Positions 28,152-40,258 of a stretch of DNA of 64,000 nt are shown here, one piece after another. Below the pieces are notes generated by a model. The model was not told the origin of the DNA. It searched no databases and worked only from the letters and a program-made list of their open reading frames with translations. Origin of the DNA: Escherichia coli O127:H6 str. E2348/69. Its GTDB lineage: Bacteria; Pseudomonadota; Gammaproteobacteria; Enterobacterales; Enterobacteriaceae. The stretch lies in the NCBI RefSeq assembly GCF_000026545.1, contig NC_011601.1; one strand, 5' to 3'. A program made the position numbers and the translations under genes. Position 1 is the first letter of the stretch; the number at the start of each line of letters is the position of its first letter.

Positions 28152-29294
28152 TTAATCCATTAACGGAAACCAGCCAGTTCCTTTCGATGCCTGAATTTGA
28201 TCCCATAGTTTATCCGGAATGGTTAATTCAGGAATGTGTTGTGGATTAAGGGCTGTTTGAATTTCATGACTTCTACCTGATTCAGCTAAAGTCACCCATT
28301 CTGGATTTATCACCAGCCCTTTACCGATCGCAACAAGTGGCAGGCCAGCGGAAATTGCTTCTTGAGCCTGAGACGGTGTGCGTATTTTACCTGCGGCGAT
28401 TACCGGCACTCTGCCTGCAATATGATTTAAAATCAATTCAATAGTTCGGGGGCCATTTGGCGACTCAACAGGGTAGCTATCGTTAATACTGACCAGCGAG
28501 GTATGTATATACGAAATACCGGATGAAATGAGCCGATCAAGGAGTTTATAAGTATCCTCTATCCGCAGTCCCCCTGTTACAGATTCTTCAGGAGATATTC
28601 TGTAACCGATAGCAAAGGGCTTTGTCGCATATTCATAGACTACATTTTTTACTTCCTGTAATACGGCCAGCGGGAAGCGCATACGTCCTTCAAGATCTCC
28701 TCCCCATCGGTCATTACGCTGGTTAAATAGAGGGGAGAAGAAATTCTGCAGAAGGAATCCGTGCGCACCATGAAGTTCAACGCCATCAAAACCTGCTTTA
28801 ATCGCCCTTTTTGTGACATCTCCGAATGCTCTAATGGTTTCCTGAATTTCGTTTTCAGTCATTTCCCTGCTTTGTACCACTCTCTTCATAAAGTCACCAG
28901 ATTTTACGCTTGATGCGCTGGCACTAATAACATCGTTATTTGGCACAAGCTCCGGGATGGCTTTATTACCGGCGTGGAAAATCTGTAAAATAGCCGGAGC
29001 ACCGCCACTTTTTGCTGCAGCTGCTAACTTTTCAAGGCTGTTAATGAAACGGTCGTCATACGCGGCAAATTCATGAGTAAACCCAATGCCGCTTGGCGTG
29101 ACATAGGTGCATCCTGTTATTACTAAACCAACATTTTGTGAGCGACGTTTATAAAATTCGAGTTCTTGCTCAGAGATGGTTCCATCAGGATTAGCTGACC
29201 AGGTTGTCATAGGAGCCATAACGATACGATTACGTAGCTTTATTTTTTCTGTCAGCATAAAAGGAGAAAACAATGATGGGTGTTTATTTGTCAT
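28152..29294 (-). CDS. NADH:flavin oxidoreductase (Old Yellow Enzyme family)
   Basis: 380 aa; OYE-like 'RIVMAPMTTWSANPDGT...GFDGVELHGAHGFLLQNFFSPLFNQRNDRWGG' TIM-barrel motifs. Confidence 0.8.
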   Translation of the reverse strand: MTNKHPSLFSPFMLTEKIKLRNRIVMAPMTTWSANPDGTISEQELEFYKRRSQNVGLVITGCTYVTPSGIGFTHEFAAYDDRFINSLEKLAAAAKSGGAPAILQIFHAGNKAIPELVPNNDVISASASSVKSGDFMKRVVQSREMTENEIQETIRAFGDVTKRAIKAGFDGVELHGAHGFLLQNFFSPLFNQRNDRWGGDLEGRMRFPLAVLQEVKNVVYEYATKPFAIGYRISPEESVTGGLRIEDTYKLLDRLISSGISYIHTSLVSINDSYPVESPNGPRTIELILNHIAGRVPVIAAGKIRTPSQAQEAISAGLPLVAIGKGLVINPEWVTLAESGRSHEIQTALNPQHIPELTIPDKLWDQIQASKGTGWFPLMD

Positions 29295-29465
29295 AACAAT
29301 ACCTCAAATGTTTATCTGATTTTAATGCGTATAATCTTAATAAGTTGAGTTGCTACTTTTTGATGCTTTTTTCTTTAATAGAATTCTTTTTGAGTAATTT
29401 CATTATTGTCGTGTAGTCAATAAAGGATAAATGTCAGGGAGATAATGAATCTCCCTGCAAGGTTA

Positions 29466-30386
29466 TTACAAATGTGTTTTGTAAAAAGGAATTAATTTAT
29501 CGAGCGCCTGTTTCACAGGTTCTGGCTTATCATACAGGTCGTAATGTGAATAACCTTCAACCACGACTAACTCTTTATGTTTTGAGGCAGCGCGGCCAAT
29601 AATTTCGCAGCCGTCACGGTAGGCACCAAATGCGCCCACTCTATCGCCCACCACAACCATTATTGGTTGAGTTAACAGGACTTCTGCAAGATGAAATGCA
29701 TCCCAACCCACGGCAACAGTCTGATGTGAGAATAGCGAACGATTTACCCCATTAGGTGCACAGCCTCGTGGCGAACGATAATATTCTGTGGCTTCAAAAA
29801 GGTCTATTTCTGTTAATTCCGCTTCAAGAGCTGCATCCGGAGAAGAGGGGAGTAAATCATCTACGCGAAGTTTTGCGCCGTTAGCTTCGTCTGTTCTTTG
29901 TTGCGCCATTGCTTCGAGTGCTCCGATAGGATTAAACGCTGTAAATCCCTCACGCATAAGACGCCCGTAGTTTGCACCCGTGACAGTACCAATAGCTTTA
30001 ATTCGACGTTCTGTCATTGCGGCATTAATGGCATATCCACCTCCACCACAAATACCCAGTACACCAATACGCCCGGCATCAACGTAAGGTAAGGTGGTAA
30101 GGTAATCAACGACAATGCTGAAGTCTTTTACTCGCATTGTTGGATCTTCCAGATAACGCGGTTCCCCACCGCTGCTTCCCTGAAAACTGGCATCAAAAGC
30201 AATGACGATAAAGCCAGCTTTTGCCAGGGCGGCACCATACACACTACCCGATGTCTGTTCTTTGCAGCTTCCAATTGGATGGGCGCTGATAATGGCAGGA
30301 TACTTTTTTTCACTATTAAAATCGTCAGGGAAATAGATATCAGCAGCTATATCCCAGTAAGTGTGTTTTATCGAAACAGTTTTCAT
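29466..30386 (-). CDS. Alpha/beta hydrolase (dienelactone hydrolase-like)
   Basis: 306 aa; nucleophile-elbow-like 'GVLGICGGGGYA'; directly upstream of and co-oriented with the OYE gene. Confidence 0.75.
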   Translation of the reverse strand: MKTVSIKHTYWDIAADIYFPDDFNSEKKYPAIISAHPIGSCKEQTSGSVYGAALAKAGFIVIAFDASFQGSSGGEPRYLEDPTMRVKDFSIVVDYLTTLPYVDAGRIGVLGICGGGGYAINAAMTERRIKAIGTVTGANYGRLMREGFTAFNPIGALEAMAQQRTDEANGAKLRVDDLLPSSPDAALEAELTEIDLFEATEYYRSPRGCAPNGVNRSLFSHQTVAVGWDAFHLAEVLLTQPIMVVVGDRVGAFGAYRDGCEIIGRAASKHKELVVVEGYSHYDLYDKPEPVKQALDKLIPFYKTHL

Positions 30387-30542
30387 TTCAAGCTCCGGGG
30401 ATTTGCCTAAACAGATTTAAATATCATTTCTATTATCCGCAACTGGCATTCGTGTTCATATCGAGAACGGCGTAATAGTATGACTTGTATTGGTTATCAT
30501 CAATGGTCTAATATCTATCACAGTGTTAAGTTAAGGTTTACA

Positions 30543-31469
30543 ATGATGAAAATAGAGCCTTCAATTTTGCCTTCTCTTGCCTGGTTTGCGCTTATTGTTC
30601 GTGCCGGCAGTTTTTCCAGAGCCGCTTCTGAAATGGGTATTACGCGGGCCGCATTGTCCCAGAATTTAAAATCTCTTGAGGAACGTCTTAACACCAAGCT
30701 GATATACCGTACGACCCGCAATATGTCGCTTACTGAGGAAGGACAGCGTCTGTATGAAGTGCTGGTGTCGGCTTTGGGGCAAATTGATGATGCTTTGAAA
30801 GATGTTGGTGATACCCAACTTGAACCTACAGGCCTGTTGAGAATAAATTCCTCCCGTGTTGCAGCAAGGATGCTTATTGAGCCTCATATTGGCGAGTTTC
30901 TTACTCGTTACCCCAAAACAAAGATAGAACTCATTATGGATGACGGTTTATCTAACATTATTGCGGACGGCTGTGATGTGGGCATACGTCTTGAGCAAGG
31001 ACTGGATGAGCATATGACTGCCGTTCCTGTTTCTCCGCTTATTAAACTGGTTACTGTGGCATCGCCAGATTATTTAAAAGAACACGGTATTCCTGAAACG
31101 CCTCAGGAACTGAGTAACCATAATTGCCTTCGGTTGCGGCATAAAAGTAGCGGTGCACTCTCTGCATGGGAGTTTTCTAATGTTGCGGGCGGGAATGAAG
31201 AGTTCGAAATAGAGGTTTCAGGTAAGTATATTTCTAATGATGACGAAAGCATGATACGAATGGCGCTGAATGGAACGGGTATCATTCAACATCTGGATTT
31301 TGCAATCGCTGAACATATCAATGCGGGCAAGTTACAGCCGATTCTTGAGGATTGGGCCGTTTCATTTCCTGGGTTTTATATATATGTTTCATCACGGGTG
31401 AGAATGCCCTCTAAAGTTCGTGCTTTTATTGATTTTATGGTGGAGAAAAGAGTAAAAATAGAAAGTTAA
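30543..31469 (+). CDS. LysR-family transcriptional regulator (divergent from the hydrolase-OYE operon)
   Basis: N-terminal HTH 'LAWFALIVRAGSFSRAASEMGITRAALSQNLKSLEERL'; start chosen at an internal Met of ORF 30480..31469. Confidence 0.8.
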   Translation: MMKIEPSILPSLAWFALIVRAGSFSRAASEMGITRAALSQNLKSLEERLNTKLIYRTTRNMSLTEEGQRLYEVLVSALGQIDDALKDVGDTQLEPTGLLRINSSRVAARMLIEPHIGEFLTRYPKTKIELIMDDGLSNIIADGCDVGIRLEQGLDEHMTAVPVSPLIKLVTVASPDYLKEHGIPETPQELSNHNCLRLRHKSSGALSAWEFSNVAGGNEEFEIEVSGKYISNDDESMIRMALNGTGIIQHLDFAIAEHINAGKLQPILEDWAVSFPGFYIYVSSRVRMPSKVRAFIDFMVEKRVKIES

Positions 31470-31551
31470 TGATGTGTGTCAGAATATCGGTAAGAAGAAT
31501 GGCACAATCGTGAGGGTACGTTTATTCATAATAAATCTCCTGAAAGTTTAG

Positions 31552-34475
<2,924 letters not shown>

Positions 34476-35025
34476 TTATCGTTCATGAGAAGCATAACGT
34501 AAAGGGAAAAGCTCGATTAGACGGCAGGATTTGTCAGGGGTTATGAACGAAATTCATAAATCTGTTTGAATGTGGCGATGAGTCGTGCAAGTTCGATATC
34601 CCTGCAATTCACAGTCTGATGAAGGAAAATGAATATCCATAAAAAATATATTGGTTTATCCTGGTGTATATACCTACTTCGACGTATTCCCAATAGCGAT
34701 TAATTAAAGACAGGTCATTATTATTCACTCTTAATAATGAATTATTCACTGCCCGCAGAGTAAGAAATATAACTTAAGTATCTATTTAATAACTTGCACA
34801 AAAAGCTAAATTTTTACCCATAAATAAAAATATAATCCCGCGCCCAACCACCTGATGAGTGGCTACAGACACTGGATATATTAGGTGGCGGTGTACTTTC
34901 TTACATAAAGGTATTTCCTTTTCTGCGGAAAAGGAAATCGGGGATTTCCCGGTTTTTCTGACAGGCAGACGCCATTATTTGTGTCTGCCTATGTTCGTTA
35001 ATTCGTTCATCAGGAAATTATCTCA

Positions 35026-38000
35026 ATGTCACGTTATAAAACAGGTCATAAACAACCACGATTTCGTTATTCAGTTCTGGCCCGCTGCGTGGCGTGGACA
35101 AATATCTCTGTTCAGGTTCTTTTTCCACTCGCTGTCACCTTTACCCCAGTAATGGCGGCACGTGCGCAGCATGCGGTTCAGCCACGGTTGAGCATGGGAA
35201 ATACTACGGTAACTGCTGATAATAACGTGGAGAAAAATGTCGCGTCGTTTGCCGCAAATGCCGGGACATTTTTAAGCAGTCAGCCAGATAGCGATGCGAC
35301 ACGTAATTTTATTACCGGAATGGCCACCGCTAAAGCTAACCAGGAAATTCAGGAGTGGCTCGGGAAATATGGTACAGCGCGCGTCAAACTGAATGTCGAT
35401 AAAGATTTCTCGCTGAAGGACTCTTCGCTGGAAATGCTTTATCCGATTTATGATACACCGACAAATATGTTGTTCACTCAGGGGGCAATACATCGTACCG
35501 ACGATCGTACTCAGTCAAATATTGGTTTTGGCTGGCGTCATTTTTCAGAAAATGACTGGATGGCGGGGGTGAATACTTTTATCGATCATGATTTATCCCG
35601 TAGTCATACCCGCATTGGTGTTGGTGCGGAATACTGGCGTGATTATTTGAAACTGAGCGCCAATGGTTATATCCGGGCTTCTGGCTGGAAAAAATCGCCG
35701 GATGTTGAGGATTATCAGGAACGCCCGGCGAATGGCTGGGATATTCGTGCTGAGGGCTATTTACCTGCCTGGCCGCAGCTTGGCGCAAGCCTGATGTATG
35801 AACAGTATTATGGCGATGAAGTCGGGCTGTTTGGTAAAGATAAACGCCAGAAAGATCCACATGCGATTACCGCTGAAGTGAATTACACGCCAGTGCCTCT
35901 TCTGACCCTGAGTGCCGGGCATAAGCAGGGCAAGAGTGGTGAGAATGACACTCGCTTTGGCCTGGAAGTTAATTATCGGATTGGCGAACCTCTGGAAAAA
36001 CAACTCGATACAGACAGCATTCGCGAGCGTCGAATGTTGGCAGGCAGCCGCTATGACCTGGTTGAGCGTAATAACAATATCGTTCTTGAGTATCGCAAAT
36101 CTGAAGTGATCCGTATTGCTCTGCCTGAGCGTATTGAAGGCAAGGGCGGCCAGACGGTTTCCCTGGGGCTTGTGGTCAGCAAAGCAACTCACGGTCTGAA
36201 AAATGTGCAATGGGAAGCGCCGTCTTTGCTGGCCGCAGGCGGAAAAATTACGGGGCAGGGCAATCAGTGGCAAGTGACGCTCCCGGCTTATCAGGCAGGC
36301 AAAGACAATTATTATGCGATTTCAGCGATTGCCTACGATAACAAAGGCAATGCCTCGAAACGTGTGCAGACAGAAGTGGTTATTAGCGGAGCTGGTATGA
36401 GCGCCGATCGTACGGCGTTAACGCTTGACGGTCAGAGCCGTATTCAAATGCTTGCTAACGGTAATGAGCAAAAGCCGTTGGTGCTGTCTCTGCGCGACGC
36501 CGAGGGGCAGCCAGTCACGGGCATGAAAGATCAGATCAAGACTGAACTAACCTTCAAACCGGCTGGAAATATTGTGACTCGTACCCTGAAGGCCACTAAA
36601 TCACAGGCAAAGCCAACACTGGGTGAGTTCACCGAAACTGAAGCAGGGGTGTATCAGTCTGTCTTTACTACCGGAACGCAGTCAGGTGAGGCAACGATTA
36701 CTGTTAGCGTTGATGACATGAGCAAAACTGTCACTGCAGAACTGCGGGCCACGATGATGAATGTGGCAAACTCCACCCTGAGCGCTAACGAGCCGTCAGG
36801 TGATGTGGTTGCTGATGGTCGGCAAGCCTACACGCTGACACTGACAGCGGTGGACTCCGAGGGTAATCCGGTGACGGGAGAAGCCAGCCGCCTGCGACTT
36901 GTTCCGCAAGACACTAATGGTGTAACCGTTGGTGCCATTTCGGAAATAAAACCAGGGGGTTACAGCGCCACGGTTTCTTCGACCCGTGCCGGAAACGTTG
37001 TTGTGCGTGTCTTCAGCGAGCAGTATCAGCTGGGCACATTACAACAAACGCTGAAGTTTGTTGCCGGGCCGCTTGATGCAGCACATTCGTCCATCACCCT
37101 GAATCCTGATAAACCGGTGGTTGGCGGTACAGTTACGGCAATCTGGACGGCAAAAGATGCTAATGACAACCCTGTAACTGGCCTCAATCCGGATGCACCG
37201 TCATTATCGGGCGCAGCTGCTGCTGGTTCTACGGCATCAGGCTGGACGGATAATGGCGACGGGACCTGGACTGCGCAGATTTCTCTCGGCACTACGGCGG
37301 GTGAATTAGACGTTATGCCGAAGCTCAATGGGCAGGACGCGGCAGCAAATGCGGCAAAAGTAACCGTGGTGGCTGATGCATTATCTTCAAACCAGTCGAA
37401 AGTCTCTGTCGCAGAAGATCACGTAAAAGCCGGTGAAAGCACAACCGTAACGCTGGTGGCGAAAGATGCGCATGGCAACGCTATCAGTGGTCTTTCGTTG
37501 TCGGCAAGTTTGACGGGGACCGCCTCTGAAGGGGCGACCGTTTCCAGTTGGACCGAAAAAGGTGACGGTTCCTATGTTGCTACGTTAACTACAGGCGGAA
37601 AGACGGGCGAGCTTCGTGTCATGCCGCTCTTCAACGGCCAGCCTGCAGCCACCGAAGCCGCGCAGCTGACTGTTATTGCCGGAGAGATGTCATCAGCGAA
37701 CTCTACGCTTGTTGCGGACAATAAAACTCCAACGGTTAAAACGACGACGGAACTCACCTTCACCGTGAAGGATGCGTACGGGAATCCGGTCACCGGGCTG
37801 AAGCCAGATGCACCAGTGTTTAGTGGTGCCGCCAGCACGGGGAGTGAGCGTCCTTCAGCAGGAAACTGGACAGAGAAAGGTAATGGGGTCTACGTGTCGA
37901 CCTTAACGCTGGGATCTGCCGCGGGTCAGTTGTCTGTGATGCCGCGAGTGAACGGCCAAAATGCCGTTGCTCAGCCACTGGTGCTGAATGTTGCAGGTGA

Positions 38001-39276
38001 CGCATCTAAGGCTGAGATTCGTGATATGACAGTGAAGGTTAATAACCAACTGGCTAATGGACAGTCTGCTAACCAGATAACCCTGACCGTCGTGGACAGC
38101 TATGGTAACCCGTTGCAGGGGCAAGAAGTTACGCTGACTTTACCGCAGGGTGTGACCAGCAAGACGGGGAATACAGTAACAACCAATGCGGCAGGGAAAG
38201 TGGACATTGAGCTTATGTCAACGGTTGCAGGGGAACTTGAGATCGAGGCCTCGGTGAAAAACTCTCAGAAGACGGTCAAGGTGAAATTCAAGGCGGATTT
38301 CAGTACCGGTCAGGCGAGCCTGGAGGTAGACGCCGCTGCTCAAAAAGTGGCAAACGGCAAAGATGCCTTTACGCTGACGGCAACGGTTAAGGATCAATAC
38401 GGCAACCTTCTTCCTGGCGCTGTGGTCGTCTTTAATCTGCCTCGGGGCGTCAAACCGCTTGCAGACGGTAATATCATGGTGAACGCCGACAAGGAGGGTA
38501 AAGCGGAACTGAAAGTGGGTTCCGTGACTGCCGGAACCTATGAGATCACGGCGTCAGCAGGAAATGACCAGCCTTCGAATGCGCAGTCTGTAACGTTTGT
38601 GGCTGATAAGACTACGGCGACCATCTCCAGTATTGAGGTGATTGGCAACCGTGCAGTGGCGGACGGCAAAACCAAACAGACGTATAAAGTTACGGTGACT
38701 GATGCCAATAACAACCTGCTGAAAGATAGCGAAGTGACGCTGACTGCCAGCCCGGAAAATTTAGTTCTGACTCCCAATGGGACGGCGACAACGAATGAGC
38801 AAGGGCAGGCTATTTTCACCGCCACGACCACTGTCGCAGCGACATATACACTCACGGCGAAAGTGGAACAGGCCGACGGTCAGGAATCGACGAAAACTGC
38901 CGAATCTAAATTCGTCGCGGATGATAAAAACGCGGTGCTCGCTGCATCTCCAGAGCGTGTAGATTCTCTGGTGGCGGACGGGAAGACTACTGCAACACTG
39001 ACGGTTACTCTGATGTCGGGTGTCAACCCCGTAGGAGGAACCATGTGGGTCGACATTGAGGCTCCGGAAGGGGTGACAGAGGCGGATTATCAGTTCCTGC
39101 CGTCGAAAAATGACCATTTCGCGAGCGGGAAAATCACGCGTACATTTAGTACCAACAAGCCAGGTACATACACATTCACATTCAACTCTTTGACATATGG
39201 AGGGTATGAAATGAAACCAGTGACTGTGACAATTAACGCCGTTCCTGCAGATACTGAAGGCGCTGAGGAGAAATAA
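35026..39276 (+). CDS. eaeH: Intimin/invasin-like adhesin EaeH (FdeC), full length
   Basis: 1416 aa; N-terminal 'MSRYKTGHKQPRFRYSVLARCVAWTNISVQVLFPLAVTF', inverse-autotransporter-like region, then many Thr/Val-rich Ig-like repeats. Confidence 0.85.
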   Translation: MSRYKTGHKQPRFRYSVLARCVAWTNISVQVLFPLAVTFTPVMAARAQHAVQPRLSMGNTTVTADNNVEKNVASFAANAGTFLSSQPDSDATRNFITGMATAKANQEIQEWLGKYGTARVKLNVDKDFSLKDSSLEMLYPIYDTPTNMLFTQGAIHRTDDRTQSNIGFGWRHFSENDWMAGVNTFIDHDLSRSHTRIGVGAEYWRDYLKLSANGYIRASGWKKSPDVEDYQERPANGWDIRAEGYLPAWPQLGASLMYEQYYGDEVGLFGKDKRQKDPHAITAEVNYTPVPLLTLSAGHKQGKSGENDTRFGLEVNYRIGEPLEKQLDTDSIRERRMLAGSRYDLVERNNNIVLEYRKSEVIRIALPERIEGKGGQTVSLGLVVSKATHGLKNVQWEAPSLLAAGGKITGQGNQWQVTLPAYQAGKDNYYAISAIAYDNKGNASKRVQTEVVISGAGMSADRTALTLDGQSRIQMLANGNEQKPLVLSLRDAEGQPVTGMKDQIKTELTFKPAGNIVTRTLKATKSQAKPTLGEFTETEAGVYQSVFTTGTQSGEATITVSVDDMSKTVTAELRATMMNVANSTLSANEPSGDVVADGRQAYTLTLTAVDSEGNPVTGEASRLRLVPQDTNGVTVGAISEIKPGGYSATVSSTRAGNVVVRVFSEQYQLGTLQQTLKFVAGPLDAAHSSITLNPDKPVVGGTVTAIWTAKDANDNPVTGLNPDAPSLSGAAAAGSTASGWTDNGDGTWTAQISLGTTAGELDVMPKLNGQDAAANAAKVTVVADALSSNQSKVSVAEDHVKAGESTTVTLVAKDAHGNAISGLSLSASLTGTASEGATVSSWTEKGDGSYVATLTTGGKTGELRVMPLFNGQPAATEAAQLTVIAGEMSSANSTLVADNKTPTVKTTTELTFTVKDAYGNPVTGLKPDAPVFSGAASTGSERPSAGNWTEKGNGVYVSTLTLGSAAGQLSVMPRVNGQNAVAQPLVLNVAGDASKAEIRDMTVKVNNQLANGQSANQITLTVVDSYGNPLQGQEVTLTLPQGVTSKTGNTVTTNAAGKVDIELMSTVAGELEIEASVKNSQKTVKVKFKADFSTGQASLEVDAAAQKVANGKDAFTLTATVKDQYGNLLPGAVVVFNLPRGVKPLADGNIMVNADKEGKAELKVGSVTAGTYEITASAGNDQPSNAQSVTFVADKTTATISSIEVIGNRAVADGKTKQTYKVTVTDANNNLLKDSEVTLTASPENLVLTPNGTATTNEQGQAIFTATTTVAATYTLTAKVEQADGQESTKTAESKFVADDKNAVLAASPERVDSLVADGKTTATLTVTLMSGVNPVGGTMWVDIEAPEGVTEADYQFLPSKNDHFASGKITRTFSTNKPGTYTFTFNSLTYGGYEMKPVTVTINAVPADTEGAEEK

Positions 39277-39400
39277 AAACGACGATGTAATGAATAATAA
39301 TGGCGTTGACATGCGCAGCGCCATTATTTACTGAATACCTACCCTGGTACCGATTAGACGGTGGCAGGGTAGGGTAAATCTTATGTGATGGAGTTACAGG

Positions 39401-40258
39401 CTAAACCGGGCGAACGGGGATAAAAATTTCGCAAACAATGTTATTGCTATCAATTTCGACGAAGTTTTCATTGTAATAAAATCGCTCAATATCACTGCCG
39501 TTCACTCTGGCTAACCCCCTGGCAGGTAATTCCATCAGATAGAGGTTTCGCGCCCATTCAGGGTAGTGCTCCCACTCACCTTCATAGCGGAAAGAGGCAT
39601 ACAGTCCTCGGTTAATTGTCCACTCTTTCGGCATCTCTGAATCGGTTTGTTTGCATACCGTACCGGCAAAAGTTTCAACTGTGAGCAAATCGACCGATTT
39701 TGTTGATGGTTCGAACGTGGAGACGAAATAGATATCCGTCTTAAAATTCTTCATACATCTGACTAAATGATGACGTCGCAGTTTGACTTCTTCATCCGGT
39801 AATTTATTCGACACTTCAATATCATATTTAAATGAATTGCCAAAAATAGGTGTCTCAGGAAAGTTGACTAATCTACACTCCGTCTTTTGCTGTTGACGTA
39901 TTAAAAAAGAAGGGAAGATATTTGCGAGATCCCAATAATCACGGTGGCGGTATTCACGGGGAGAGCAGCCGAATAACTTTTTAAATTCGCGGCTGAATGA
40001 CTGCTGTGAATCAAAATGCAAAGAGAGTGCAATATCAAGCATAGATTTCGCGGAGAGCCGGACAAGAATGGCGGCACGACAAAGCCTGCGTTTGCGAATG
40101 TATTCTCCCAAAGGCACATGCATGAAATTTCGGAACAGAAGCTGGATGTTGCGTCTGCTGTAGCCAGATTTCTGTGCGATATCTTCGATTGAAATAGGGT
40201 GCTCAAGATTGCACTCAATCCACTCCAGGAGCTGCTGTAGAATCTTCTGCCTGATCAT
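39401..40258 (-). CDS. ykgA: AraC-family regulator with GyrI-like effector domain (YkgA-like)
   Basis: AraC HTH 'IEDIAQKSGYSRRNIQLLFRNF...' plus C-terminal GyrI-like region; start chosen at the Met preceded by GGAG (ORF track start is 40291). Confidence 0.7.
   Translation of the reverse strand: MIRQKILQQLLEWIECNLEHPISIEDIAQKSGYSRRNIQLLFRNFMHVPLGEYIRKRRLCRAAILVRLSAKSMLDIALSLHFDSQQSFSREFKKLFGCSPREYRHRDYWDLANIFPSFLIRQQQKTECRLVNFPETPIFGNSFKYDIEVSNKLPDEEVKLRRHHLVRCMKNFKTDIYFVSTFEPSTKSVDLLTVETFAGTVCKQTDSEMPKEWTINRGLYASFRYEGEWEHYPEWARNLYLMELPARGLARVNGSDIERFYYNENFVEIDSNNIVCEIFIPVRPV

Follow-up and report, generated by a model that had tools for sequence, protein, structure and literature searches.

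In a 64,000-nucleotide stretch of the Escherichia coli O127:H6 str. E2348/69 genome (contig NC_011601.1; hereafter the window), we analyzed the adhesin gene fdeC (also named eaeH) at 35026..39276 and the intergenic leader that precedes it. The gene is very probably intact, and encodes a type Ve adhesin exported by a known secretion mechanism; fdeC is a known and well-characterised gene, found here in its ordinary intact state, and its intactness in E2348/69 adds nothing new. Upstream of it we found an invariant module of ~230 bp that comprises a marbox-like box, a -10 hexamer, and a structured 5′ untranslated region (UTR). This module might form an undescribed two-level switch, which would combine activation by an AraC-family protein, most plausibly the product of the neighboring ykgA gene, with a leader that sequesters the Shine-Dalgarno (SD) sequence and acts as a thermosensor or attenuator. 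We offer this combined reading as a speculative one, and consider it unlikely to hold in full.

The strongest conservation in the leader lies downstream of a duplicated motif on which the initial annotation had focused, and went unnoticed there. We aligned the leaders of seven E. coli strains and three other Escherichia lineages (10 leaders in total), and compared E2348/69 block by block with the most divergent of these, CP089930.1 (Table 1). The latter record (‘E. coli strain E69’, 4.44 Mb) represents a divergent lineage that is treated as its own species representative. In this genome fdeC adjoins a gadB-like glutamate decarboxylase gene, and the ~840-bp leader is homologous to that of E. 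coli from the box onward only; we found no second example of such a leader among 5,426 complete E. coli genomes. The box at 34793-34812 is identical at 20/20 positions in all 10 leaders, with diverging flanks. Identity from the box to the ATG, set against that of third-codon positions in the adjacent coding sequence (CDS), was 0.958 versus 0.863, 0.932 versus 0.859, and 0.815 versus 0.770 in three comparisons with non-coli lineages, and over 5,038 records the same segment is mostly 95-99% identical where the full region is mostly 90-95%. Judging from these comparisons, the leader is under purifying selection. A search of the sequences preceding 75 paralogous inverse-autotransporter loci, all from other genera, turned up no homologous leader. 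In one record, NZ_CP144930.1 (SCPM-O-B-9504), the match to the promoter and UTR ends at query position 96 (~34885), with no annotation at that point; an insertion or rearrangement in the 5′ UTR is possible in this strain.

The box, CTTGCACAAAAAGCTAAATT, contains the sole exact match in the window to the marbox core GCACNNWNNRYYAAAY (16/16 specified positions; 0.37 matches expected), and agrees at 14/15 positions with the consensus 5′-GCAHWWWWTGYYAAA-3′ (PMC6900184). It has the same orientation as fdeC, and 18 bp separate its end from a perfect TATAAT hexamer, for which no -35 hexamer is recognisable. A transcription start ~7 nt after the -10, predicted near 34843, would center the box near -40. 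Class II MarA-type promoters carry a forward box between -36 and -55 that overlaps the -35 (PMC12052159), and the class II site of micF lies at about -41 with the same CAC-N-AAA polarity as the fdeC box (PMC8811837). The fdeC box thus agrees at 16/16 core positions with the class II promoters of the MarA/SoxS/Rob/RamA group (micF, lpxC P2, lpxL P1), and differs from them in that its start is predicted only, its candidate activator is uncharacterised, and a MarA peak is lacking in strain H10407 (PMC5684230). Transcription of fdeC would accordingly begin near 34843 from a perfect -10 with no -35 and a marbox-type box centered near -40, and because this is the class II MarA/SoxS/Rob geometry (as in micF), an AraC-family monomer would be needed as the activator. 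The obvious candidate is YkgA, the Rob paralog encoded next to fdeC. YkgA aligns over its full length (aa 5-283) with the Rob structures 7VWY and 1D5Y (E=6e-38), and its DNA-binding half also matches SoxS (E=1.8e-26), RamA, and MarA. We found no account of its function in the listed titles and abstract openings of papers that mention ykgA.

The predicted 5′ UTR is ~183 nt long. We computed its fold on 34843-35040 and found a minimum free energy of -64.6 kcal/mol, compared to -45.7 +/- 4.2 kcal/mol for shuffled sequences (z=-4.54; 0/200 as stable). A consensus fold computed from the leader alignment retains the helices of the single-sequence fold. In the predicted structure, a U-run UUUUCUGA (34954-61) pairs with the SD region UCAGGAAA (35010-17) to form a helix that encloses a hairpin, HP3, and ACAU (34903-06) pairs with the fdeC start codon. 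The UUCU-AGGA pairing within the SD helix is present in both the single-sequence and the consensus fold, and both of its strands are invariant even in the divergent lineage. At 37 °C the SD region has a modeled probability of being unpaired of 0.10, versus 0.41 +/- 0.17 when the upstream sequence is shuffled. HP3 shows one compensatory change from G-C to A-U, and an A.C mismatch in it becomes A-U in the divergent lineage; the stem of a second hairpin, HP2, alternates between C-G and U-G. Such a UTR would fold so that the U-run pairs with the SD sequence, restraining translation until the helix is opened. We rejected three other features of this region: CUGAUGAG as a hammerhead, since Rfam gives no match; a 9-codon open reading frame (ORF) at 34855, which loses its ATG in the divergent lineage; and a 97-aa GTG-started ORF at 34859-35152, which is out of frame with fdeC and lacks a ribosome-binding site.

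Expression of FdeC is unusual. FdeC is reportedly not expressed under standard conditions and is induced by host-cell contact in uropathogenic E. coli (PMC11143625; PMC3324786). PMC11143625 further states that in avian pathogenic E. coli (APEC) 37 °C is non-inducing and 42 °C with pH 8 is inducing, that FdeC of enterohaemorrhagic E. coli (EHEC) is detected at ≥39 °C only, and, citing Easton 2014, that H-NS regulates fdeC. H-NS is known to repress FdeC expression, which requires 39-42 °C. A two-level switch, if true, would explain both the silence of FdeC in the laboratory and its appearance at 39-42 °C or upon host contact. It would also explain why K-12 has given no hint of such control, with fdeC and ykgA both lost there to one IS3 event.

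A number of observations weigh against this switch, beginning with its promoter half. At least one exact marbox-core match arises in 27% of shuffled 64-kb sequences, degenerate marbox matches in the window are at chance level, and we found no related box at ≤3 mismatches in the divergent promoter region between ykgA and the aldo/keto reductase (AKR) gene or elsewhere. A consensus promoter scan of the leader returned no sigma-70 site on the plus strand. MarA chromatin immunoprecipitation sequencing (ChIP-seq) in enterotoxigenic E. coli (ETEC) H10407, which carries an intact eaeH, yielded 33 peaks, none of them at eaeH (PMC5684230). YkgA is tied to the box by adjacency and family alone. Finally, the divergent lineage has a different gene upstream, and the sharp onset of conservation at the box may therefore mark a rearrangement breakpoint; the contrast between box, spacer, and -10 block falls within the homologous part of the divergent leader.

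It is quite possible, if somewhat short of an even chance, that the marbox match is coincidental and that the box is instead UP-element-like, a substitute for the -35, or the site of an unrelated factor. Beyond the shuffle counts and the lacking MarA peak, this explanation draws on the degeneracy of the marbox consensus, which has ~10,000 copies per genome, most of them non-functional (PMC5684230), and on the A/T-rich composition of the box and its placement where an UP element or a -35 would be. However, the box is kept at 20/20 positions beside a diverged spacer, indicating that its exact sequence matters, and its orientation and predicted position would fit the class II geometry (PMC12052159, PMC8811837). 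A full-length Rob paralog is encoded next door, and the authors of the MarA ChIP-seq study note that occluded sites and sites preferring SoxS or Rob were missed (PMC5684230). Tentatively, and as a possibility more than a probability, we propose that the box does serve as a site for an AraC-family activator.

The UTR half of the switch meets objections of its own. Nearly all UTR pairs are invariant, with a double change in 1/61 and a covariation term of ~0, so that the alignment is uninformative on the fold. The occlusion of the SD sequence is only marginally unusual, with 6% of shuffles as low, and the ribosome-binding window taken more widely is no more closed than usual (0.485 versus 0.50). 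The modeled probability of an unpaired SD sequence is 0.08 at 30 °C, 0.10 at 37 °C, 0.13 at 42 °C, and 0.19 at 50 °C, in thermodynamic models that predict the temperature response of accessibility poorly.

These values bear directly on the idea that the 5′ UTR is an RNA thermometer, with the U-rich strand melting off the SD sequence above ~39 °C independently of H-NS. We judge this improbable. It would fit the reported production of FdeC at ≥39 °C (EHEC) or 42 °C (APEC) only, and the UUCU-AGGA pairing shared by both folds with its two invariant strands; in the literature searched, no RNA thermometer is mentioned together with fdeC or eaeH. On the other hand, the modeled opening from 37 to 42 °C is small, the SD occlusion reaches only the 6% level against shuffles, the SD helix sits within a large and stable multi-branch fold, unlike short labile thermometer hairpins, and H-NS alone could account for the temperature effect. 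Salmonella agsA and Yersinia lcrF are regulated by FourU-type or other SD-sequestering RNA thermometers. The fdeC leader resembles them in that a U-rich strand pairs with the AGGA of the SD sequence and the product appears at elevated temperature only. It differs in that its helix closes a large multi-branch structure for which no melting is predicted in the physiological range, and in that the anti-SD strand is UUCU within UUUUCUGA and not the UUUU of FourU thermometers.

A different explanation of the same segment is that HP1, HP2, and the U-run (34913-34961) constitute a Rho-independent terminator, serving either to attenuate transcription, with most transcripts stopped short of fdeC, or to end a separate ~115-nt small RNA (sRNA) made from the shared promoter. 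We find this somewhat unlikely. A terminator scan flagged HP2 followed by TTTTTCT, with 3 terminator-like sites in 700 bp versus 0.6 expected. The stem and U-run are kept in 10/10 leaders, with the stem surviving both an inversion of the loop and C-G/U-G changes, and the segment is still conserved in K-12, where fdeC is a pseudogene, although IS3 may have truncated the K-12 gene so recently that no decay is visible yet. Against a terminator, the HP2 stem is short (5-6 bp), and an Rfam scan of 34300-39600 at E≤1 detected no RNA family match, in this segment or elsewhere. Conservation is highest (100%) in the 33 nt that precede the ATG and lie past the putative terminator, a pattern more in line with translational control of fdeC than with a stand-alone sRNA.

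The inverted loop is an allele carried by E2348/69. Its loop at 34943-34947, GATTT, is the exact reverse complement of the commoner AAATC, with the stem intact, and over 34940-34950 the E2348/69 sequence GGGGATTTCCC and the sequence of most E. coli, GGGAAATCCCC, are likewise exact reverse complements. By this comparison, the HP2 allele is a hairpin loop inversion that mimics three substitutions. The allele is found in at least 252/5,038 records, and not in close CDS relatives of E2348/69 such as EC100, a distribution which suggests that the leader and CDS of fdeC have different histories. Together with this rare loop, the E2348/69 leader differs from other fdeC alleles by a G-to-T change in the middle ATTATTCA half-site of the upstream array and by an extra G that lengthens HP3.

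The upstream part of the leader bears out much of what the initial annotation had described there. The 565-bp leader is indeed AT-rich, with a GC content of 37.3% versus 49.3% for the window (the 3.6th percentile of 565-nt windows), and its most AT-rich part, 34601..34840, has a GC content of 29.6%. A leader core of this composition is a typical H-NS substrate. The motif ATTATTCACT does occur twice, at 34720-34729 and 34741-34750, 21 bp apart. Its description as a duplication needs revision, as the array is better seen as three alternating half-sites, and its conservation falls short of that of the box, the -10, and the 5′ UTR. In most strains it reads ATTATTCA-CTC-TGAATAAT-GA-ATTATTCA, with spacings of 11 and 10 bp, and in E2348/69 the middle half-site has T in place of G. 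The motif is conserved among strains: it is kept in 8/10 leaders (with one base changed in three), comprising most E. coli, E. whittamii, and Escherichia sp. E1V33, and the array is absent from the CP089930.1 leader. ATTATTCA occurs 6 times in the window versus 2.9 expected, and 7/100 shuffles reach 6; since the motif is not rare by count, its credibility rests on arrangement and conservation.

The leader of strain GPEC1176 lacks exactly 21 bp, equal to one repeat unit. Junction-spanning probes detected this one-unit deletion on at least three flank haplotypes: 89 genomes carry it on the first, 3 on a second, and 5 on a third. As one genome counts toward both of the smaller groups, the total is ~96 of ~5,100 genomes (~2%); one O157:H7 strain (NE 1092-2) is included. 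By its haplotype distribution, the deletion arose independently several times, in keeping with slippage between the direct repeats. The ATTATTCACT array is thus a recurrent deletion hotspot and not a fixed element.

These data bear on the reading that the duplicated ATTATTCACT is the key regulator site, coupled to variation between strains in the copy number of the immunoglobulin (Ig)-like repeats of the adhesin, which we place on the unlikely side. The conservation of the motif in 8/10 leaders speaks for it, as do the regular 10-11 bp spacing of the three half-sites, typical of a multimeric DNA-binding protein, and the two LysR-type regulators encoded just upstream in E2348/69. However, the divergent E69-type leader lacks the array while retaining the box, the -10, and the UTR; one unit has been lost on at least three haplotypes, making it dispensable in nature; and the middle half-site is mismatched in E2348/69 itself. 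The array is also retained in K-12-type strains despite deletion of the upstream LysR/AKR cluster, the divergent aldo/keto reductase gene is an equally possible target of it, and the variation in Ig copy number is contradicted by the CDS data given below. A plausible reading of the array is that of a dispensable operator that would serve fdeC or the divergent reductase gene. In the proposed control region, the AT-rich distal leader (34601-34840) with its three ATTATTCA half-sites would be the silencing or operator zone. Compared by eye with the Fur, ArgR, CRP, MetR, RcsB, and ArcA motifs, the ATTATTCA array fits none convincingly. Three copies of a separate 8-9-nt motif, TCGTTCAT, lie between the reductase gene and fdeC (34476-34489, 34540-34552, and 35000-35013), two of them inverted relative to each other close to the reductase start and the third beside the fdeC SD sequence; this is at chance level for 8-mers in 565 bp.

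Turning to the gene itself, a single ATG-started frame of 1416 codons with no frameshift or internal stop covers 35026..39276 on the plus strand, and its translation is 100% identical to RefSeq WP_000092633.1, ‘inverse autotransporter adhesin FdeC’. The initial annotation had described a full-length 1416-aa EaeH/FdeC with a beta-barrel and a long run of Ig-like repeats, and our analysis supports each of these points. Published FdeC is likewise 1,416 aa long, with >91% amino-acid identity between strains and 95% to ETEC EaeH (PMC3324786). The region 34461-39400 is 100% identical to the E2348/69 chromosome over its full length and has a match in 5,093 of the 5,426 complete E. coli genomes, with ≥80% coverage in 4,571; 12 of the matches sit on plasmid-labelled records, possibly chromosomal segments on large plasmids or misassigned replicons.

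By hydropathy scan and reading of the translation, the FdeC N-terminus is a long predicted signal peptide, made up of a basic n-region, a hydrophobic core that spans aa 20-44, and ARA|Q as the putative cleavage site at ~aa 47. It is followed by an inverse-autotransporter barrel (Pfam PF11924 on aa 76-350; E=2.5e-110, 368.9 bits versus a cut-off of 22.3), and aa 113-357 align with the barrel structures of invasin (4E1T, E=2e-84) and intimin (4E1S, E=3e-72). The intimin D00-D0 structure 6TQD aligns to aa 358-479 (E=3e-11). In the passenger, Pfam detects nine Invasin_D3 and four Big_1 stretches, and a repeat hidden Markov model (HMM) seeded from three crystal-structure domains only resolves nine tandem Ig-like domains over aa 456-1411, for a total of ten with the D00-like domain. 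The solved FdeC fragment, PDB 4E9L, covers aa 595-1008 (E=3.9e-256). FdeC has the signal peptide, N-terminal barrel, and Ig-like C-terminal passenger of type Ve adhesins, and lacks the LysM domain, an optional feature that intimin, YeeJ, IatC, and IatD have. NCBIfam intimin models score it at 389.7 bits, far below their cut-off of 1400. By the established family mechanism, the long Sec signal peptide would direct FdeC to the periplasm, the 12-stranded N-terminal barrel would insert into the outer membrane, and the passenger of ten Ig-like domains without a lectin cap would be threaded outward, forming a rod that binds host cells and matrix.

FdeC of E2348/69 equals the previously described FdeC/EaeH proteins (IHE3034 ECOK1_0290, ETEC H10407 EaeH, and EHEC FdeC) in chromosomal position, 1416-aa length, and domain order. 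It shows nothing categorical relative to other E. coli alleles, with which it shares 91-98% nucleotide identity, and is one allele among hundreds. With intimin (Eae) and Yersinia invasin it has in common a signal peptide, an inverse-autotransporter barrel, and a Big_1/Invasin_D3 passenger; it differs in lacking the periplasmic LysM domain and the C-type lectin cap, and in having many more Ig domains (ten).

Two further claims of the initial annotation did not hold. The first was a LysM-like region at the N-terminus: Pfam gave no LysM match for the whole protein, or for aa 1-122 at E≤10, and between the predicted cleavage site (~aa 47) and the start of the barrel there is room for ~28 residues only. 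Published domain maps assign LysM to YeeJ, IatC, and IatD, and not to FdeC (PMC6714894). The second was a length polymorphism through variation in repeat number. Tandem Repeats Finder detected nothing in the fdeC CDS except a 19-bp hexamer run; the Ig repeats have diverged too far to be recognised as tandem repeats at the DNA level, and therefore offer no substrate for slippage. FdeC is 1415-1418 aa long in the five other strains that we compared (91-98% nucleotide identity), with length differences confined to the extreme C-terminus. Published work describes strain diversity in terms of amino-acid sequence variants, of which two genome sets contained 125 and 630 (PMC11143625). FdeC thus varies between strains by point substitution, not by repeat gain or loss. 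Across the CDS, amino-acid identity is about equal to nucleotide identity between strains (e.g., 0.921 versus 0.922), meaning that the protein changes fast by substitution, and the N-terminal 460 aa are much more conserved (0.97 amino-acid versus 0.94 nucleotide identity). This pattern suggests that non-synonymous changes accumulate at a very high rate in the passenger.

Downstream of fdeC, the next gene is an intact 285-aa AraC/GyrI-type regulator, ykgA, at 39401..40258 on the minus strand, and no transposase lies there, in agreement with the initial annotation’s statement that fdeC is not interrupted by IS3. In K-12, by contrast, fdeC is cut at 876 bp and followed by IS3 and then by a truncated copy of the regulator gene, so that one IS3 event truncates both genes. 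The hairpin that follows the fdeC stop codon (AATAATGGCG ... CGCCATTATT) is likely the fdeC terminator, as predicted from its sequence; other strains have a longer perfect stem at this position. We rejected a 12-nt inverted repeat flanking fdeC (CATTATTATTCA at 34716 and TGAATAATAATG at 39291) as a mobile-element or looping signal: its 3′ copy is specific to E2348/69, and at least two matches occur in 12% of shuffles.

The neighbors of fdeC are identical in six E. coli strains, where the gene lies between the ykgR/AKR side and ykgA-rclCBA. Upstream, E2348/69 encodes two aldo/keto reductases, two LysR-type regulators, an alpha/beta hydrolase, and a flavin oxidoreductase. This block (29000-34474) is present in E2348/69 and ECONIH2 and partly in O157, and is absent from K-12-type strains. 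In the latter, ykgR-ykgM-ykgO abut the fdeC leader with a 90-bp reductase remnant, and the breakpoint lies at 34461-34474.

Table 1 Features of the fdeC locus in the E2348/69 window, and identity of leader blocks to the divergent lineage (CP089930.1).
Feature	Position	Strand	Evidence and remarks	Identity to divergent lineage
Divergent intergenic leader, 565 bp	34461..35025	.	GC 37.3%	
Upstream block of leader	34461-34792			36-46%, effectively unalignable
Three alternating 8-bp half-sites	34720..34750	+	ATTATTCA 34720-27, TTAATAAT 34731-38 (TGAATAAT in most strains), ATTATTCA 34741-48	
Marbox-like box CTTGCACAAAAAGCTAAATT	34793..34812, core 34796-34811	+	Exact GCACNNWNNRYYAAAY match; conservation	20/20
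Spacer	34813-34825			6/13
-10 block	34826-34840			15/15
Perfect -10 hexamer TATAAT, no recognisable -35	34831..34836	+	Read from sequence; predicted start near 34843	
Block after the -10 block	34841-34905			68%
5′-proximal hairpin of predicted 5′ UTR	34848..34888	+	Folding	
HP1 and HP2 block	34906-34960			93%
HP1, perfect 11-bp stem ATTTCCTTTTC / GAAAAGGAAAT	34913..34938	+	Folding; invariant in 10/10 leaders	
HP2, short G+C stem then U-run, terminator-like	34937..34953	+	Folding, terminator scan	
U-run UUUUCUGA, predicted partner of SD region	34954..34961	+	Folding	
HP3 block	34961-34992			72%
HP3, 8-bp stem AGGCAGAC / GTCTGCCT	34963..34990	+	Folding	
Final 33 nt before ATG	34993-35025			33/33
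SD region UCAGGAAA, AGGA 35012-35015	35010..35017	+	Inside the 33-nt block, 100% conserved	
fdeC (eaeH) CDS	35026..39276	+	1416 aa, intact; ORF list, translation, RefSeq annotation	
Signal peptide, ~aa 1-47	35026..35166	+	Translation and hydropathy scan; predicted cleavage site	
Inverse-autotransporter beta-barrel, aa 76-350	35251..36075	+	Pfam PF11924 (IAT_beta)	
First Ig-like (D00-type) domain, aa 358-455	36097..36390	+	Intimin structure match	
Nine tandem diverged Ig-like domains, aa 456-1411	36391..39258	+	Internal-repeat HMM, Pfam, 4E9L; no C-type lectin cap	
Predicted fdeC terminator hairpin, AATAATGGCG ... CGCCATTATT	39296..39328	+	After stop codon; predicted from sequence	
ykgA, full-length Rob paralog, convergent with fdeC	39401..40258	-	Pfam AraC-type helix-turn-helix and GyrI-like; Rob structures	

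FdeC is a broadly conserved E. coli surface antigen and a vaccine candidate (PMC3324786), and the control of its expression is only partly understood, with H-NS, temperature, pH, and host contact implicated so far. Our analysis directs attention to 34793-35025 and the neighboring ykgA as the focus for explaining its unusual expression. The part of this locus without an explanation in the literature searched is the conserved promoter and folded leader, which may control when FdeC is produced.

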